A DNA stretch of 64,000 bases from Bacilli bacterium (GTDB lineage Bacteria; Bacillota_I; Bacilli_A; RF39; UBA660). The notes under the pieces were generated by a model. That model searched no databases. It saw nothing but the letters and a program-made list of their open reading frames with translations, and was not told the DNA's origin. Of this stretch, positions 4,659 to 49,118 are shown in pieces. The stretch's first letter is position 1. Each line of letters starts with the position of its first letter. Location of the stretch: the NCBI GenBank assembly GCA_017459965.1, contig JAFUBW010000002.1, forward strand, positions 748 to 64,747. Reading direction: 5' to 3'. A program made the translations under genes and the position numbers.

Positions 4659-4679
4659 AAAGAGATTAATTATCTCTTT
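4659..4679. terminator. Hairpin between convergent PBP and noc genes
   Basis: AAAGAGAT/ATCTCTTT 8-bp stem with a 5-nt loop overlapping the noc stop codon. An A-run on the plus strand gives a T-run for the minus-strand transcript. Confidence 0.5.
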
Positions 4680-5601
4680 CTACTTTAATTACAAATTGAT
4701 ACAATCCATCAAAATCATATTTTTCAAGTGTTGCATCAAATCCTAAATCATTTATTTCTTTTAATACTTTTTCTATTTTATTAATAACATCATTAAAATC
4801 AGGTCTTAAATTTGATAAATCCTCATCCATTACTTCAATTTCCTCATCTTTAGGAACAACAATATTATCTATACTAATAGTATTATTTAATAAATTATCA
4901 AGTTCCTTCATATCATTATCTGCTTTTGATAAATCAATCATTTCTGGAAAATCAAATGTTTTAGATGTTAAATTTGATACTGGTATAAATTTATCATTAT
5001 TTAATTTTTCACTTATTAAATTTTCTGTATCCCTTACATTTAATCTATTATTTAATATTTCATGTAATACTTCTTTTTGTATATTTTTATCATCTAATCT
5101 AAGTAAGCTTCTAGCATGTCTTTCTGATATTTTATTATTTAAAAGAGCTTCTTGTACTTCATCATCTAGATTTAAAAGTCTTAATTTATTTGATATAGTA
5201 GCTTGTGTTTTACCCATTCTACCTGCTAGTTGATCTTGTGTTAAATAACCTCTATCAAGTAATTTTTTATAAGATTTAGCTTCTTCTATTGGGGATAAAT
5301 CTTTTCTTTGTATATTTTCAACAATAGCTACTTCGGCTGATTCATTATCATTTAAATTTATAACAACAGCTGGTACTTCAGATAAACCAGCAATATAAGA
5401 TGCTTTATATCTTCTTTCCCCTGCGATTATTTCGTATTTATCACCTATTTTACGTAGTACAAGTGGTTGAATTATTCCATGTTGTCTAATAGATTCTGCA
5501 AGTTCATTTAATCCTTGTTCATCAAAAGAAAGTCTTGGTTGAAATCTATTTGGAATTATGTCATCTAATGATACTTGTATTATTTCTTTTTCTTTATCCA
5601 T
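4666..5601 (-). CDS. noc: ParB-family protein, Noc-type (nucleoid-occlusion-like), N-terminally short
   Basis: ParB boxes are present: IPNRFQPR, GERRYKA, ENIQRKDLSPIEEA. The HTH region GKTQATISNKLRLL...ISERHARSL aligns without gaps to B. subtilis Noc ([14 protein letters not shown]...ITERHARAL). It sits directly downstream of rsmG as noc does. ATG 5601 is preferred (SD AGGGTGA); GTG 5610 is the alternative. Confidence 0.75.
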   Translation of the reverse strand: MDKEKEIIQVSLDDIIPNRFQPRLSFDEQGLNELAESIRQHGIIQPLVLRKIGDKYEIIAGERRYKASYIAGLSEVPAVVINLNDNESAEVAIVENIQRKDLSPIEEAKSYKKLLDRGYLTQDQLAGRMGKTQATISNKLRLLNLDDEVQEALLNNKISERHARSLLRLDDKNIQKEVLHEILNNRLNVRDTENLISEKLNNDKFIPVSNLTSKTFDFPEMIDLSKADNDMKELDNLLNNTISIDNIVVPKDEEIEVMDEDLSNLRPDFNDVINKIEKVLKEINDLGFDATLEKYDFDGLYQFVIKVERDN

Positions 5602-5631
5602 ACTACTCACCCTTTTATTCTATATAAATAG

Positions 5632-5666
5632 TATAAAATAAAAATCCATTTTTTACAATGGATTTT
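5632..5666 (-). terminator. rsmG intrinsic terminator
   Basis: AAAATCCATT/AATGGATTTT 10-bp stem overlapping the rsmG stop codon, followed on the minus strand by TTTTTATTTTAT. Confidence 0.65.
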
Positions 5667-6357
5667 TCTTAATTTTATCAAAGTTTCTAGGATATTTATC
5701 ACTTGTTTTACTATTTTTATTAATTACAATTAAATTTCTAATAGAGTTTTCTTTAGGTAAATTAAAAGTAATTATTTTTTCTAAAGTACTATTTAATACT
5801 TTAAGTGAATTTTGTGATTTTTTTAATTCCTCTTCTATATTAGCTTTCATAGGAATAAAATATCCATTTATTTTAAGTATTGGTATACTAAGTTCATTTA
5901 AAATATTTAGTTTTGCAACTGCACGCGATGTCACTAAATCAAATTCTTCTATATGTTTTTTAGCAAAAGTTTCTGCTCTTTCATGTATTGCATGTATTTT
6001 ATCAAGTTTTAATTCATCTATTACTATATTTAAAAAATTAATTCTTTTGTTTAATGCATCTACTAATGTAATATCAATATTATCAAAGAATATTTTTAAA
6101 ACTATTCCTGGAAAACCTGCACCTGTACCTATATCACATACTTTTATATTATTATTTAAATCATATGCTTTTATAAGTGTTAAACTATCATAAAAATGTT
6201 TTAAATAAACTTCTTCTTTATCTGTAATGGCTGTTAAATTAATTTTTTCATTCCACTCAACTAGGAGTTCATAATACCTATTTAACTTATTTAATTTATC
6301 TTGAGTTACCTTTATTCCTAATTTTTCTACTTCACTAATAAATAATTCTTTATTCAT
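5653..6357 (-). CDS. rsmG: 16S rRNA (guanine527-N7)-methyltransferase
   Basis: GidB family layout with the SAM motif DIGTGAGFPG. It overlaps the mnmG stop by 8 nt, as in the conserved mnmG-rsmG pair. Confidence 0.9.
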   Translation of the reverse strand: MNKELFISEVEKLGIKVTQDKLNKLNRYYELLVEWNEKINLTAITDKEEVYLKHFYDSLTLIKAYDLNNNIKVCDIGTGAGFPGIVLKIFFDNIDITLVDALNKRINFLNIVIDELKLDKIHAIHERAETFAKKHIEEFDLVTSRAVAKLNILNELSIPILKINGYFIPMKANIEEELKKSQNSLKVLNSTLEKIITFNLPKENSIRNLIVINKNSKTSDKYPRNFDKIKKNPL

Positions 6358-15660: not shown

Positions 15661-17034
15661 ATGAATATAGATAATATTTGGAATAAATTTTTAAATTCTA
15701 TTAAATCAAGATTATCTTCGCTTTCATATAATACTTGGTTTTCATCTTCTAAATTAGTAGAATTAAATGAGGAAGCAGCAATTATTGTAGTACCAACAAT
15801 AGCTCATAAAAAACATCTATCAGAATCATATATAGATATTATCGAAGAAATATTTAATAATATTACAGGTACTAATTTTAATATTGAATTTTTACTTGAA
15901 AATGAATATGAACAATTAAAAAAAGATAATAAACCTATTATTGAAGAAGAAATTGAAGAAATAGGTGTTCCTCATAATAGTATAGAAAAGGCTAATTTAA
16001 ATCCTGATTATACTTTTGAAAATTTTATAGTAGGGGAAAGTAATAGATTTGCACAAGCTACTGCACTTGCTGTTGCTGAAAATCCTGGTAAAATGTATAA
16101 TCCTTTATTTATATATGGTAATAGTGGTTTAGGTAAAACACATTTAATGCAAGCAATTGGTAATTATATAGTAAAAAATACATCAAAAAGAGTACTTTAT
16201 GTTACATCTGATCAATTTATTAATGATTTTTTAGGTATAAATAAAAGAGATAAAGATGGATCTAATCTTGATTATATAGATTTATTTAAAGATAAATACA
16301 GAAATATTGATGTTCTTATTATAGATGATATACAATTTTTAGGAAATGCTCCTAAAACTCAAAATGAATTTTTCCACACATTTAATAATCTATATGACGA
16401 TAAAAAACAAATAATAATATCTTCTGATTCATCTCCTGATGATTTAAAACATTTAGAAGATAGACTTAGAACTAGATTTAATTGGGGATTAAAAGTAAAT
16501 ATTTTTCCACCAGATAATGAACTTAGAAAAGAAATACTTAGAAAAAAAATGGCAAATATGGAGTTTTCTAAACATATATCTGAAGATGCAATTGAATATA
16601 TAGCTAATATGTGTTCATCTGATGTTAGAAGTTTAGAAGGGGCTTTAACTAGAGTTTGTGCTTATTCTACAATATTTTTTGAAGAAGATATAACACTTGA
16701 ACTTGCTGTTGAGGCATTAAAAGGAACAATAACACCTACAACTAACTTTAAAAATGATATACAAAAAATACAAAGAGTTGTTGCAGAACATTACAATGTA
16801 ACTGTTGATGATTTAAAATCAAAGAAAAGAGTAGCAACTATAGCTTTTCCAAGACAAATTGCTATATATTTATCTAGACAATTAACTGATGAATCATTTC
16901 CTAGAATAGGTATGGAATTTGGTGGAAGAGATCATTCAACAGTAATACATTCAGTTGATAAAATTCAAAAAGAAATTAAAAATAATAAACAACTTGAAAA
17001 TATTATTAATGAAATAAAAGAAAAATTAAAGTAA
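15661..17034 (+). CDS. dnaA: Chromosomal replication initiator protein
   Basis: Walker A GNSGLGKTHL, IDDIQF, box VII SDVRSLEGAL, and the domain IV HTH (FGGRDHSTVIH). Confidence 0.97.
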   Translation: MNIDNIWNKFLNSIKSRLSSLSYNTWFSSSKLVELNEEAAIIVVPTIAHKKHLSESYIDIIEEIFNNITGTNFNIEFLLENEYEQLKKDNKPIIEEEIEEIGVPHNSIEKANLNPDYTFENFIVGESNRFAQATALAVAENPGKMYNPLFIYGNSGLGKTHLMQAIGNYIVKNTSKRVLYVTSDQFINDFLGINKRDKDGSNLDYIDLFKDKYRNIDVLIIDDIQFLGNAPKTQNEFFHTFNNLYDDKKQIIISSDSSPDDLKHLEDRLRTRFNWGLKVNIFPPDNELRKEILRKKMANMEFSKHISEDAIEYIANMCSSDVRSLEGALTRVCAYSTIFFEEDITLELAVEALKGTITPTTNFKNDIQKIQRVVAEHYNVTVDDLKSKKRVATIAFPRQIAIYLSRQLTDESFPRIGMEFGGRDHSTVIHSVDKIQKEIKNNKQLENIINEIKEKLK

Positions 17035-18433: not shown

Positions 18434-18877
18434 ATGAATAATTATATTATTAATTCAAATACAGTTGCACTTATTCCAATTAAAAATAAAATAACACGTG
18501 TTATTGAATTAGAATCATCATTTTTAGTAAATGAAAATTCCATGAAAATTATTGAAAATAGTTGTGAATATTTTGGAAGTTCTTATTTAGGTAGACATAA
18601 AGGTACTAAAAATTTAACTGGTATTAATTATAAATCTCCTATAATAATTGAAGAAACTAAAAATATTATATTTTTTCCAACAAATTCTCCAAGAGATAAT
18701 AATTGTAGTTGGATATCTTTAAATTATATAAATAAATATATTAATAAAAATGGAAAAATAGAAGTAATTTTTGAAAATGGTGATAAATATGTTTTTGATA
18801 TATCATTTGGATCATTTGATAATCAATATTTACGTGCAACTAAGCTTGAATCAATACTTAGAAAAAGAAAAATATAA
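18434..18877 (+). CDS. comK: ComK-family competence transcription factor
   Basis: It aligns along its length with B. subtilis ComK as recalled: SCEYFGSSYLGRHKGT vs SCRFFGSSYAGRKAGT, SPIIIEETKNIIFFPT..CSWIS vs PPIMVDPSNQIFLFPT..CGWIS, and ISFGSFDNQYLRA vs ISYNSFENQVYRTA. The SD is AAAGGGGG. Confidence 0.85.
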   Translation: MNNYIINSNTVALIPIKNKITRVIELESSFLVNENSMKIIENSCEYFGSSYLGRHKGTKNLTGINYKSPIIIEETKNIIFFPTNSPRDNNCSWISLNYINKYINKNGKIEVIFENGDKYVFDISFGSFDNQYLRATKLESILRKRKI

Positions 18878-24507: not shown

Positions 24508-24533
24508 ATTAAATATAAATACGAACAAAATAC

Positions 24534-24574
24534 GAACAAAATATTTCCCGGGAAATAATTTGTTCACTTTTTTA
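24534..24574 (+). terminator. gyrA terminator 2 (32-bp near-perfect palindrome + T-run) carrying the NBS
   Basis: GAACAAAATATTTCCC|GGGAAATAATTTGTTC has one mismatch and is followed by ACTTTTTT. Confidence 0.65.
24543..24556. promoter_or_regulatory. Noc-binding site (NBS), perfect consensus
   Basis: ATTTCCCGGGAAAT matches exactly the 14-bp palindromic NBS consensus described for B. subtilis Noc. It is the only CCCGGG in the window. Confidence 0.7.
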
Positions 24575-24637
24575 TAAAAAATAACATTTTTATAAAGAAT
24601 TTTATTATATTATAATAATATAAAATAAATTAATTAA

Positions 24638-24653
24638 TGTTTCACGTGAAACA
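24638..24653. promoter_or_regulatory. parS site 1 (perfect symmetric consensus)
   Basis: TGTTTCACGTGAAACA. The palindrome extends to 20 bp (AATG...CATT). It lies 11 bp upstream of the ffs -35 element. Confidence 0.85.
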
Positions 24654-24664
24654 TTGAATAAAAT

Positions 24665-24693
24665 TGACTTATTTAAAAATAAATAGTATATTA
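24665..24693 (+). promoter_or_regulatory. ffs promoter
   Basis: TTGACT, 17-nt spacer, TATATT. The predicted transcription start is about 24699, at the first base of the SRP RNA terminal stem. Confidence 0.6.
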
Positions 24694-24698
24694 TAAAT

Positions 24699-24774
24699 GC
24701 ACAACGGAAATATTGGAACCAGGTCAGGATAGAAATATAGCAGCCTTAACAATTAATTTTCGTGTGTGCTTTTT
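24699..24774 (+). ncRNA. ffs: Small (4.5S-type) SRP RNA
   Basis: CCAGGUCAGGAUA-GAAA-UAUAGCAGCC reproduces the helix 8 motif of E. coli 4.5S RNA (CCAGGUCAGGUCC-GGAA-GGAAGCAGCC), with a GNRA tetraloop and the CAGG/AGCA loop. The terminal stem pairs GCACA..CGGAAA with UUUUCG..UGUGC, followed by a U-run. Confidence 0.85.
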
Positions 24775-24792
24775 CTTTTTTTGGAGGGTAAA

Positions 24793-25200
24793 ATGAATAT
24801 AGATTCGATTGAAAAAGAATTAAATAAATTAATTAATAAAGCTATTAAACATGATGAAGTTCCAGTTGCAGCTTTAATTATAAAAGATAATAAAATAATA
24901 TCTAAATCTTATAATAAAGTGAATAAAACAAATAATATTTTAGATCATGCAGAAATAATTTCAATAATAAAAGCGCAAAAAAAATTAAATAATTGGAGAT
25001 TAAATAATTGTGATTTATATGTTACATTAGAACCTTGTTCAATGTGCAAAGAAATTATTAAAAAATCAAGAATTAATAATGTTTATTATTTTATAAAACA
25101 AAATAATAATAGAACTGAATTAGATGTAAATTATAAATATTTATTTAAAAATGATAATTTTTCAAATAAATTAACAAATTTTTTTAAAAATAAAAGATAG
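24793..25200 (+). CDS. tadA: tRNA-specific adenosine(34) deaminase
   Basis: Zinc motifs HAE (LDHAEII) and PCxxC (EPCSMCKE). The start is ATG 24793 after GGAGGG. The tracked start at 24766 would overlap the SRP RNA. Confidence 0.88.
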   Translation: MNIDSIEKELNKLINKAIKHDEVPVAALIIKDNKIISKSYNKVNKTNNILDHAEIISIIKAQKKLNNWRLNNCDLYVTLEPCSMCKEIIKKSRINNVYYFIKQNNNRTELDVNYKYLFKNDNFSNKLTNFFKNKR

Positions 25201-25205
25201 TTGAA

Positions 25206-25221
25206 TGTTTCACGTGAAACA
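25206..25221. promoter_or_regulatory. parS site 2
   Basis: TGTTTCACGTGAAACA inside the 26-bp perfect palindrome TTGAATG...CATTCAA (25201-25226), which begins 1 nt after the tadA stop codon. Confidence 0.85.
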
Positions 25222-25271
25222 TTCAATTAAAAAATAAAAAAACATATGTTATTTTATTAAAAATCTATCAA

Positions 25272-25287
25272 TGTTTCACGTGAAACA
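25272..25287. promoter_or_regulatory. parS site 3
   Basis: TGTTTCACGTGAAACA inside the 28-bp perfect palindrome TATCAATG...CATTGATA (25266-25293). Confidence 0.85.
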
Positions 25288-25319
25288 TTGATAATAAAAT
25301 ATGATGAAATAAAAAGTAA

Positions 25320-25335
25320 TGTTTCACGTGAAACA
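25320..25335. promoter_or_regulatory. parS site 4
   Basis: TGTTTCACGTGAAACA inside the 28-bp perfect palindrome AAGTAATG...CATTACTT (25314-25341), followed by ATTTTTT. Confidence 0.85.
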
Positions 25336-25356
25336 TTACTTATTTTTTATTATTTA

Positions 25357-25365
25357 TGATATAAT
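25357..25365 (+). promoter_or_regulatory. dnaX extended -10 promoter element
   Basis: TGATATAAT lies 17 nt upstream of the dnaX ATG region. The -35 position falls in the right arm of the parS-4 palindrome. Confidence 0.5.
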
Positions 25366-25381: not shown

Positions 25382-27016
25382 ATGGAATATCAAGCATTAT
25401 ATAGAAAATATAGACCAAAAACATTTGATGATGTATATGGTCAAAAAATAATAGTACAAACATTAAAAAATATTATAAAAAATAATAAATTAACGCATGC
25501 TTACTTATTTATTGGACCTCGTGGTACAGGTAAAACAAGCATAGCTAAAATTTTTGCTAAAACAATTAATTGTCTTAATTCAAATGATGGAATATCATGT
25601 GAAAAATGTGATATTTGTACTAATATAAATAATAATGAAAATATAGACATAATTGAAATGGATGCGGCATCAAATAATGGTGTCGATGAAATTCGTGAAA
25701 TTAAAAATCATGTTACTTTATTACCAACTGTATCTAAATATAAAGTATATATTATCGACGAAGTACATATGCTTACAACAGGTGCTTTTAATGCACTTCT
25801 TAAAACATTAGAAGAACCACCTAAGCATGTAATATTTATTTTGGCAACAACAGAACCACATAAAATACCCTTAACAATAATATCTAGATGTCAATCTTTT
25901 GAATTTAAACCAATACCTAAAAACATAATAAAAGAAAGATTAAATTATATTTGTAAAAAAGAAAAAATTAAAATTGATGATAAATCATTAGATTTAATTG
26001 CAATCGATTCAAATGGTGGTTTAAGAGATGCAATTAGTATGTTGGATCAATTAAATGCTTATTCAAATGGTAATATTCAATTTGAAAATGTATTATTATT
26101 AAATGGAAGAGTTTCCGATGATGACTTATTAGAAATAATTAATAATATATATGATTGTAATTTAAATGATGTATTTAAAATAATTGATAAAATAGATAAT
26201 GATGGTAAAAATTTTGTTTATATATCAGAAGATATGATAAAAATATTACGAAATGAATTATTAAATTATCAATTAAATAATTCATCAAAATTAATAAAAA
26301 AAATAACAAAAGAAAAAATACTGGATATAATTTTATTAATAAATAGGTCAATAAATGATATGAAAAATTCAAATGATAAAAGAATTTTCTTTGATATACT
26401 TATTTTAAAAATATATGAAATCATAAATAATAACAACAAACAAACAAATGTTCTATTAAAAAATGAAATATCTACTGGAAATAAAGATGATATAACAAAA
26501 AAAATACCTGTTGATAACTTAAAAAATGATAAAAAAGAAAATAATATAGATTTTTCTTTATATGATGATTTAATGAATATAAGATTAAATAATATATTAG
26601 CAACTGCAAGTAAGAAAGATTTAGTTGATTATAAAGAAAAATTAAATTCTATTGATATGGAAATTATTAATTTAGATCAGTTAAGAATAGCTAATATATT
26701 AAATGATTTTGATATAAAAGCAGCTTCTTCATCAGGTATAGTTTTAACTACTTCATCTGATAATTTAATTCATGATATTTATAATGAATTAATTAATGTT
26801 GATAAATACATAACTGATATATTAAAAAGAGATATTAAAGTTTGTGTTATATTAATAGATGAATGGAATAAAAAAAGAGAAGTATATATTAAAAAAATAA
26901 AGAATAAAGAAAAAATAGAAATATTAGAAGAAAAAGAAATTTTAGATAAAATAATAAATAAATTTAGTAATAAATCTAATGAATTTGATGATTTATTAGA
27001 AATAGGAGGAGAATAA
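25382..27016 (+). CDS. dnaX: DNA polymerase III subunit gamma/tau
   Basis: The start MEYQALYRKYRPKTF follows GGAGGT. Walker A GPRGTGKTS, the zinc module CxxC..C, and SRCQ are present. The tracked start at 25319 (MFHVKH) is simply the translation of parS-4. Confidence 0.93.
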   Translation: MEYQALYRKYRPKTFDDVYGQKIIVQTLKNIIKNNKLTHAYLFIGPRGTGKTSIAKIFAKTINCLNSNDGISCEKCDICTNINNNENIDIIEMDAASNNGVDEIREIKNHVTLLPTVSKYKVYIIDEVHMLTTGAFNALLKTLEEPPKHVIFILATTEPHKIPLTIISRCQSFEFKPIPKNIIKERLNYICKKEKIKIDDKSLDLIAIDSNGGLRDAISMLDQLNAYSNGNIQFENVLLLNGRVSDDDLLEIINNIYDCNLNDVFKIIDKIDNDGKNFVYISEDMIKILRNELLNYQLNNSSKLIKKITKEKILDIILLINRSINDMKNSNDKRIFFDILILKIYEIINNNNKQTNVLLKNEISTGNKDDITKKIPVDNLKNDKKENNIDFSLYDDLMNIRLNNILATASKKDLVDYKEKLNSIDMEIINLDQLRIANILNDFDIKAASSSGIVLTTSSDNLIHDIYNELINVDKYITDILKRDIKVCVILIDEWNKKREVYIKKIKNKEKIEILEEKEILDKIINKFSNKSNEFDDLLEIGGE

Positions 27017-48976: not shown

Positions 48977-49118
48977 ATCCAAAAAGTTTGATGTACCGAA
49001 GACAGTAAGTGCTATAAGCTTAATATCTTACCGAGGGACAAATCTTAAATAGTTTATTTAAGTCTTTGTACCCTTTGTACAGAGACTTTTTTGATATAAA
49101 TTTGATAGGAGGATGAAA
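48977..49118 (+). promoter_or_regulatory. Ribosomal protein L10 leader (autoregulatory attenuator), with promoter TGATATAAT at 48962-48970
   Basis: A long 5' leader carries the paired segments ACCGAAGACAGTAAG / CTTACCGAGGGACA. A terminator follows at 49061-49092 (AGTCTTTGTAC/GTACAGAGACT, T6) just before the rplJ SD. This is the layout of the Firmicute L10 leader. Confidence 0.6.

Follow-up and report, generated by a model that had tools for sequence, protein, structure and literature searches.

The 64,000-nucleotide stretch analysed here (the window; contig JAFUBW010000002.1 of an uncultured Bacilli bacterium) carries, between gyrA and dnaX, four exact copies of the 16-bp sequence TGTTTCACGTGAAACA, the symmetric form of the parS consensus TGTTNCACGTGAAACA. 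We propose that these copies are chromosomal parS centromere sites that constitute an origin-proximal loading array for a ParB-type cytidine triphosphate (CTP) clamp, and that its address does not change within an uncultured, spore-forming Bacilli lineage of roughly 18-31% GC: it lies in the spacers of the gene string gyrA-(ffs)-(tadA)-dnaX, all read in one direction, some 8-10 kb from dnaA. At this address parS is combined with Noc-binding sites (NBS), which would be read by a Noc-type paralog that is encoded beside rsmG and has no membrane helix; the two ParB-family clamps may load side by side from opposite faces of the DNA, the reader of parS probably being a canonical ParB (R173/G201 type) encoded outside the sequence examined. 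Each parS copy that is not part of a tandem repeat lies in a longer perfect palindrome with idiosyncratic arms, a DNA-level property specific to parS and to this clade. We suggest that stem-loop or cruciform potential is selected at parS, candidate benefits being help with, or gating of, clamp loading, or an effect on the loading of structural maintenance of chromosomes (SMC) complexes in very AT-rich DNA. Two of the hairpins, the NBS after gyrA and the last parS before dnaX, may double as intrinsic terminators. To the account as a whole, namely a genuine parS array, composite with NBS, served by two ParB-family clamps and endowed with selected parS arms, we assign a probability of about 0.72.

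The four sites (copies 1 to 4) occupy positions 24638-24653, 25206-25221, 25272-25287 and 25320-25335. An earlier note, made from the letters of the window alone, had listed exactly these sites, and the search finds no fifth match in the 64 kb even at up to 3 mismatches, for a chance expectation of 0.01-0.31. All four copies are intergenic and the centres of copies 2, 3 and 4 are 66 and 48 bp apart, as the note had stated. The placement of copy 1 near the -35 element of ffs and of the other three in the tadA-dnaX spacer also stands: TTGACT (24664-24669), the -35-like half of the TTGACT/TATATT promoter-like site of ffs, follows the end of copy 1 after 10 nt, and the spacer from the tadA stop (25200) to the dnaX ATG (25382) measures 181 bp. 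The array is origin-proximal, as expected of chromosomal parS, at about 7.6-9.7 kb from dnaA. Perfect palindromes surround all copies, at 24636-24655 (copy 1, 20 bp), 25201-25226 (copy 2, 26 bp, beginning 1 nt past the tadA stop codon), 25266-25293 (copy 3, 28 bp) and 25314-25341 (copy 4, 28 bp); copy 4 is followed by ATTTTTT at 25342-25348, which makes 25314-25348 a terminator-like element on the plus strand. The palindromes correspond to extensions of 2, 5, 6 and 6 bp beyond the core, and at random positions in the window an extension of at least 5 bp has a probability of 0.003 and one of at least 6 bp a probability of 0.001. As single-stranded DNA, copies 2 to 4 fold with -9 to -11 kcal/mol (copy 2: -9.0 as DNA, -15.4 as RNA) versus about -5 to -6 in the case of copy 1, where the stem reaches only 2 bp past the core. 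Among four contigs of the same species, the sole difference in 921 aligned bases is a G>T single-nucleotide polymorphism at position 2 of the core of copy 3 (contig L007, position 18794, equivalent to window position 25273).

The array is conserved in position across the lineage. A DnaX-based scan with one genome per GTDB species gave 80 Firmicute loci, and the nine closest (L010, L011, L012, L014, L015, L028, L032, L034 and L039; ~37-45% DnaX identity) each contain 2-9 parS at no more than 1 mismatch, mostly within ~1.5 kb 5' of dnaX, so that arrays lie between gyrA and dnaX in all the nearest relatives; another locus, L055, has two sites with 2 mismatches each. Closer relatives, at 60-75% DnaX identity, share the plan of the window: one NBS after gyrA, 3-6 parS between tadA and dnaX (tadA positions were taken from Pfam-annotated gene calls) and often one parS adjoining the ffs promoter, as the counterpart of copy 1 does in L094 and L096. 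The last parS ends 46-67 bp 5' of the dnaX ATG in the window, L011, L015 and L094-L097, and 103 bp in L098, and in most of these loci a T-run comes after it. Loci recovered independently of any site pattern amount to 426 kb; their parS (1 mismatch at most) number 63 in gyrA-dnaX spacers and 5 within dnaX, with none in the other 382 kb of origin-proximal DNA. The sites thus form a tight origin-proximal array and not a generic intergenic repeat, in agreement with the earlier note.

Outside these relatives, the corresponding spacer has no parS array in ~70 Bacillus, Lactobacillus, Streptococcus, Clostridia and other Firmicute loci. Just two of these loci, the Erysipelotrichia L068 and L078, have parS in the spacer, one or two sites each, located 94 bp past the gyrA 3' end in L068 (7327) and ~1.8 kb past gyrA in L078 (9272). 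A parS near gyrA may be ancestral and may have expanded later into arrays. In L041 (73% GyrA identity), the gyrA-dnaX spacer (5322-6169) lacks an intact parS or NBS, the sole remnant being TGTTTCCTGTGAAACA, which has 2 mismatches; even fairly close relatives thus do not all possess the array. Where it is present, copy number (2-9) and spacing (37-250 bp) turn over fast between relatives, and some arrays are true tandem repeats with units of 37, 44, 62, 125 or 167 bp. In two species, parS copies ~45-69 bp apart are found in frame inside the dnaX reading frame (L011, 11062 and 11131; L015, 11101, 11146 and 11191), where they encode N/D-V-S/P-R-E-T-L peptide repeats in the variable linker of DnaX. 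No third conserved motif was detected in 136 arrays, k-mers of ffs being the sole enriched non-site motif, and DnaA boxes inside the arrays are unremarkable. Tight spacing, for which the earlier note had considered the array unusual, is not in itself exceptional for perfect parS: pairs 20-50 bp apart occur in 61 viral or mobile-element contigs of IMG/VR (L099-L159, GC 0.25-0.63), some of them as regular tandem arrays, with a 30-bp period in L101 (2833-2938). These elements may use the chromosomal ParB of their hosts.

The second line of evidence concerns the flanks of the sites. Clade sites read A...T at position ±1 (48/48 and 47/48) and, for the most part, at ±2 as well, which makes the conserved element in fact an 18-20-bp palindrome, with the 18-mer form ATGTTTCACGTGAAACAT. 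Beyond this conserved flank, arm sequences vary between parS copies yet match within each copy. Half (50%) of the 48 perfect clade parS are extended by at least 5 bp, versus 2.4% in a mismatched-partner control in which the left flank of one site was paired with the right flank of another, and none of 20,000 permutations attained the observed count. At the orthologous last copy the arms read gtaa/ttac in the window, L094 and L095, ataa/ttat in L096 and tgaa/ttca in L097, which are compensatory changes: as the earlier note had anticipated, the outer arms stay palindromic in relatives while their sequence changes. Its reading of perfect 20-28-bp palindromes with differing extensions holds as well, except that the extension of copy 1 is AA/TT only, that is, the clade-wide conserved flank of the site and not a co-varying arm.

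Several controls define where this symmetry occurs. Among copies with unique flanks, a run of at least 3 matching positions beyond the conserved flank is seen at 37.5% of parS versus 2.6% in the control and at 0% of NBS versus 2.7%; NBS copies with shared flanks show no arm excess either (5.1% versus 4.2%). The 190 perfect parS in the 61 unrelated IMG/VR contigs with tight parS pairs have no arms (1.1% versus 1.1%). On the transcribed strand, G.U is not enriched at the first interrupting pair (3/37 versus 10.8% expected). The arm symmetry is thus Watson-Crick and is general neither to ParB sites nor to protein-bound palindromes here. Long arms are a feature of unique-flank copies, with a median extension of 5 bp versus 1 bp for tandem-duplicated copies (p=4e-6), and no excess of arms is seen at the five parS copies called in-ORF by a stop-to-stop open reading frame (ORF) scan. 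Only 17% of the long-armed sites have 6 or more T among the 8 nt that follow. Symmetric ParB contacts outside the core were considered as the cause of the arms and rejected, because they would yield a consensus, which is seen only at ±1/±2, and not site-specific covariation. The best-supported reading of these comparisons is parS-specific selection on DNA stem-loop or cruciform potential; a literature search returned nothing relevant on cruciform or hairpin parS.

A perfect NBS, which the earlier note had overlooked together with the Noc-type residues of the sole ParB-family gene and the composite architecture, lies ~80 bp ahead of parS copy 1. This site, TATTTCCCGGGAAATA (24542-24557, plus strand), matches the consensus ATTTCCCGGGAAAT as a perfect 14-mer and 16-mer and is the sole perfect NBS in the 64 kb. 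It lies within an element (24534-24573) made of an imperfect palindrome, GAACAAA.../...TTTGTTC, and a TTTTTT tract (24568-24573), and an NBS directly after gyrA is kept in L094-L098. The surroundings of the site are repetitive: directly upstream of it, at 24518-24541, the short repeat ATACGAACAAA occurs twice; ACGAACAAAA flanks the NBS on both sides as a direct repeat in L095-L098; and the right-side flank is inverted, TTTGTTC(GT), in the window and L094. This flanking repeat is conserved at 60-75% DnaX identity. In relatives up to 11 NBS are interleaved with parS: six parS alternate with six NBS in 125-bp units in L014, most of the 62-bp units of L012 contain one parS and one NBS, and L032 and L055 have parS-NBS-parS triplets. 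Across the clade loci, NBS density is 0.73/kb in the gyrA-dnaX spacer versus 0.02/kb elsewhere, a ~35-fold concentration.

When the metagenome collection was searched by sequence only for parS and NBS cores lying within 10-40 nt of each other, at least 120 loci were obtained, with a median GC of 0.264, of which 86 match the GyrA and 73 the DnaX of the window; given the GyrA matches, most of these loci belong to the same spacer of the same lineage. A census of 1.12 Mb of clade DNA gave, among the matches listed, 352 pure parS, 332 pure NBS, 12 other combinations and a single chimera of a parS half and an NBS half, which argues for two discrete specificities. Distances between the centres of neighbouring parS and NBS peak at ~26, 36, 46, 58, 68, 78 and 89 bp, with a Rayleigh statistic at 10.5 bp of R=0.40 (n=367). 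After de-duplication of the 136 arrays into 107 clusters, each distinct distance being counted once, R was 0.36 (n=233, nominal p ~1e-13, phase 5.1 bp); at the level of clusters it was 0.42 (n=95, nominal p ~4e-8), and for distances above 54 bp, beyond the selection imposed by the search pattern, 0.35 (n=85, nominal p ~3e-5). Distances between parS sites in the same arrays are unphased. A phase of ~5 bp at a 10.5-bp period implies that parS and NBS tend toward opposite faces of the helix. We found no account of composite parS/NBS arrays in a literature search.

The protein that would read the NBS is encoded directly after rsmG, at 4666-5601 on the minus strand (311 aa, ATG at 5601, the start used by gene callers), the position that noc holds in B. 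subtilis. This is the only ParB-family gene in the window and within about -23 to +51 kb of the replication origin (oriC), and it has no ParA or Soj neighbour; searches with tblastn in the window and in the loci of relatives found no second ParB paralog and no Soj-Spo0J pair. The best matches of the protein in the PDB are Noc structures (7nfu, 7ng0, 7ol9), and it scores 214 bits against Noc of G. thermoleovorans versus 172 against Spo0J of B. subtilis. The CTP motifs GERRxRA and ENxQR are intact, and the specificity residues are those of the Noc type: Q173, K179, N184 and R201. The earlier note had assumed a cognate ParB; the only candidate near the origin thus turns out to carry Noc-type residues. 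Among the 120 closest homologues (66-100% identity), 119 have the combination QKNR and one has QKSR, so that N184 replaces the near-invariant K184 of Noc in 119/120. Jalal et al. (PMC7383237) established that four positions set ParB/Noc specificity, that parS-specific variants have an invariant R173, that Q173 reads adenine 1 and R201 cytosine 6 of NBS given K at 179 or 184, and that dual-specificity variants mostly have T or S at 201. The combinations QKNR, QKAR and QKSR have zero occurrences in the supplement of that study, and the prediction that the window protein reads NBS and not parS is accordingly based on the stated rules and on elimination among 15 PtoN variants.

The N-terminus of this protein is unlike that of Noc. 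In Noc, the membrane-targeting segment consists of residues 1-10, an amphipathic helix needed for membrane binding and nucleoid occlusion (PMC8429893). The window protein has no such N-terminal 10-aa helix: only 17-19 residues precede the NxxQPR motif in 120/120 family members, and the residues of Noc ahead of 23 (7nfu, G. thermoleovorans) or 27 (7ol9, B. subtilis) remain unaligned, from which we conclude that the membrane helix is lacking. The NCBIfam model TIGR04285 (nucleoid_noc) gives 288.4 bits, under its cut-off of 315, with positions 1-199 of 255 of the profile matched. We therefore file the protein, provisionally, as Noc-like in its predicted DNA recognition and yet outside the functional Noc family. 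Family members are 305-339 aa long, and their C-terminal part, which falls outside the alignment to the NCBIfam Noc model, comprises a long, variable, acidic linker (e.g. EEIEVMDED) followed by a conserved C-terminal LEKYDFDxLYQFVIKVE.

Two elements only, copy 4 and the NBS hairpin, combine a stem-loop with a U-tract 3' of a co-oriented gene. Copy 4 with its ATTTTTT folds with -16.1 kcal/mol as RNA and fits the pattern of an intrinsic terminator, likely for read-through from tadA. The RNA hairpins of the parS copies reach -14 to -16 kcal/mol in general, and copies 1-3 have no plus-strand T-run. A T-run after the last copy recurs in L011, L015, L039, L094 and L095. Around the NBS after gyrA, 32 nt (24534-24565) fold into an imperfect hairpin of -11 kcal/mol with U6 behind it, and in L094 this NBS is a 36-bp perfect palindrome; the element 24534-24573 is the likely terminator of gyrA. 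The NBS hairpin and copy 4, the outer elements of the locus, thus plausibly double as the gyrA and tadA terminators. The right arm of copy 4 also occupies the -35 position of the dnaX extended -10 TGATATAAT (25357-25365), where its TTACTT is a poor -35 and the promoter scan made no call; occlusion of the dnaX promoter at copy 4 is possible. The earlier proposal that the sites couple ParB loading to termination or promoter occlusion thus accounts for only one copy per array, here the terminator-like copy 4, T-runs following only 17% of the long-armed sites.

How the arms arose can be explained otherwise. They could be a neutral mutational footprint, in which quasipalindrome template switching at replication used one arm as the model for the other; any perfect palindrome that persists long enough would then lengthen and stay symmetric with no selection for hairpins, the sites would be ordinary ParB sites and the arms would have no function. 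This mechanism is well documented (PMC7202029), and in its favour the pairing is strictly Watson-Crick with no tolerance of wobble, arm length is unrelated to T-runs save at the last copy, and the tandem copies, presumed to be younger, have short arms; symmetrisation predicts the compensatory-looking changes at the orthologous last copy equally well. It would, however, have to be both parS-specific and lineage-specific: the NBS that share these arrays and genomes, themselves perfectly palindromic over at least 16 bp, show no arm excess, and the 190 perfect parS of unrelated contigs lack arms. We consider such a footprint unlikely. Selection might also act on RNA, every parS hairpin being a terminator, pause site or stabilising stem-loop that insulates ffs, tadA or dnaX or shields ParB loading sites from read-through, with the parS core borrowed to supply the GC of terminator stems where the genome has ~22-24% GC. 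Such a role would suit the location of all arrays in spacers of a co-oriented gene string, the stability of the RNA hairpins (-14 to -16 kcal/mol), the T-run that trails the last copy in six or more species, the U6 after the gyrA NBS hairpin, the slightly higher T content behind palindromes with long arms (3.6 versus 2.4 of 8, p=0.02) and the lack of arm excess at the five in-ORF copies. It sits poorly with the scarcity of T-runs at long-armed sites (17%), with G.U-compatible interruptions that are not enriched (3/37) and with NBS that occupy the same transcribed spacers and have no co-varying arms, and we judge it quite improbable as a general explanation. Taken together, the NBS, IMG/VR and G.U controls weaken both a generic template-switch origin and a general RNA-terminator explanation, and selection on DNA stem-loop potential at parS is the reading we retain.

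The identity of the parS reader raises a further question, as the genome might encode no canonical ParB at all: the QKNR protein would then read both parS and NBS, or an unrelated factor would read parS, possibly as a hairpin. A single ParB-family gene with no adjacent soj/spo0J, here and in relatives with 78% and 67% identical orthologues, the tight and regular coupling of NBS to parS, the N184 found instead of K184 in 119/120 members and the loss of the membrane-targeting segment are all in line with this idea. We nevertheless consider it very unlikely, as in published deep mutational scanning R173 never varies among parS-specific variants and T/S201 prevails in dual ones, whereas this family has Q173/R201, as the near-total absence of hybrid sites fits two discrete specificities, and as the search covered only ~75 kb of this genome. 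The simplest expectation is that parS is bound by the product of an orphan parB elsewhere in the genome; S. pneumoniae has such an orphan parB with no adjacent parA (PMC7022226). Several observations nonetheless weigh against our account as a whole. No canonical R173-type ParB was found by tblastn in the window or in the 10 kb past its left end, nor, among the matches listed, in ~1.1 Mb of origin-proximal clade DNA or in the noc contexts of two relatives. The NBS-parS distance in the window is 96 bp, off the preferred phase, and the window's sub-clade has one NBS per locus, so that the composite, phased pattern is a clade-level property that is weak in this genome. The loci share ancestry and their spacing is partly inherited, which means that the Rayleigh p-values overstate independence. 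About a third of the perfect parS sites have arms of 2 bp or less, and since ParB binds parS as a duplex, which a cruciform would break apart, a positive role of extrusion in loading is not obvious. A more ambitious version of our account, a bipartite centromere in which the parS clamp acts with an anchor-less Noc-type clamp repurposed to origin organisation, with half-turn phasing and a parS that needs DNA stem-loop potential, is one that we hold tentatively and with more doubt than belief; in its extreme form there would be no canonical ParB and the Noc-type protein would be the sole partition protein.

The genomic context is that of a Firmicute replication origin region, as indicated by the GC skew, which changes sign (minimum) near 13 kb, where the origin was placed, and by the order of the flanking genes, rnpA-yidC-jag-mnmE-gpsA-mnmG-rsmG on the minus strand and dnaA-dnaN-comK-recF-gyrB-gyrA on the plus strand, with dnaA annotated at 15661-17034 (plus strand). 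The GC content of the window is ~22-24%. Within the array, ffs, the gene of the small signal recognition particle RNA, lies at 24692-24779 (plus strand; Rfam, 56.8 bits) and is embedded in the array here and in many relatives; tadA (tRNA adenosine deaminase, 24793-25200, plus strand) lies between copy 1 and copies 2-4, and dnaX (DNA polymerase III gamma/tau, 25382-27016, plus strand) follows, the array always stopping just 5' of it. The source lineage, a "Bacilli bacterium" in NCBI, uncultured and metagenomic, encodes SpoIIR, SpoIID, SpoIIID and ComK. The ComK-family gene (18434-18877, plus strand) is inserted between dnaN and recF, within the otherwise universal dnaA-dnaN-recF-gyrB block, and this placement is kept in L094-L098. 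At 48978-49101 (plus strand) rplJ is preceded by an ordinary ribosomal protein L10 leader (Rfam RF00557, 86.5 bits).

ParB and Noc are textbook examples of diverged paralogs whose sites differ at two positions per half-site, ParB acting in segregation and SMC loading and Noc in membrane-tethered nucleoid occlusion. Here both types of site are joined at one fixed origin-proximal address, strictly distinct and phased, together with a Noc-type protein that lacks the membrane helix. If both clamps load there, the locus would provide a natural example of two CTP-switch clamps that cooperate or gate each other, and would show that Noc-type specificity is compatible with functions besides occlusion. 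For selection on the potential of centromere DNA to form secondary structure, the clade- and parS-specific arms offer a clean case that is open to test and, although the organism is uncultured, synthetic DNA and recombinant proteins would suffice for testing the whole model in vitro. Multiple origin-proximal parS, clustered parS and orphan ParB are already known (PMC7022226) and the array as such is ordinary. What is new is the constancy of the gyrA-dnaX address throughout a large uncultured lineage in which copies turn over rapidly, even into the dnaX linker, the parS- and clade-specific co-varying DNA palindromes, the coupling of NBS to parS with discrete identities and helical phasing, and a Noc-type paralog without membrane anchor as the only origin-proximal ParB-family gene.

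In B. subtilis, parS sites are dispersed over a large domain and lie mostly inside genes. The Spo0J(ParB)-parS system of that species, with its 10 parS sites (PMC7022226), is otherwise close to the one described here: the 16-bp site is the same, in its fully symmetric form in the window, it is origin-proximal in a Firmicute with dnaA-dnaN-recF-gyrB-gyrA synteny, and its presumed role is likewise to nucleate CTP-dependent ParB clamps and to load SMC. The window differs in that ~700 bp of intergenic DNA at a single conserved address hold every site present over at least 64 kb, in that no soj-spo0J operon stands beside the noc-type gene and rsmG, and in the co-varying palindromic arms of its parS. 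Tandem arrays of ParB-family sites are also found on the F plasmid, where sopC consists of 43-bp units, each with a SopB-binding inverted repeat, and unit lengths near whole helical turns are a further resemblance; unlike sopC, the present array belongs to a chromosome, is built on the universal parS sequence and has two site types in alternation. To our knowledge, the parS clusters of P. aeruginosa and S. pneumoniae span kilobases, and we know of no NBS or variable palindromic arms reported there. These clusters (parS1-4 of P. aeruginosa; four parS with an orphan parB in S. pneumoniae) share with ours the presence of several parS near oriC (PMC7022226); the arrays described here have spacings of 37-250 bp, and some are true tandem repeats or run in frame into dnaX. 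Quasipalindrome template-switch mutagenesis (PMC7202029) likewise yields perfect inverted-repeat extension and apparent compensatory changes; it should not tell parS from NBS palindromes, yet only parS is armed. Finally, the Noc-NBS system of B. subtilis is matched by a perfect 16-bp NBS and by a paralog beside rsmG with Q173, K179, R201 and intact CTP motifs. In contrast to Noc, the window protein has no membrane helix, has N184 and scores under the NCBIfam cut-off, and the NBS of the clade, over the loci covered, are concentrated ~35-fold at the parS locus instead of scattered, and are helically phased with parS.

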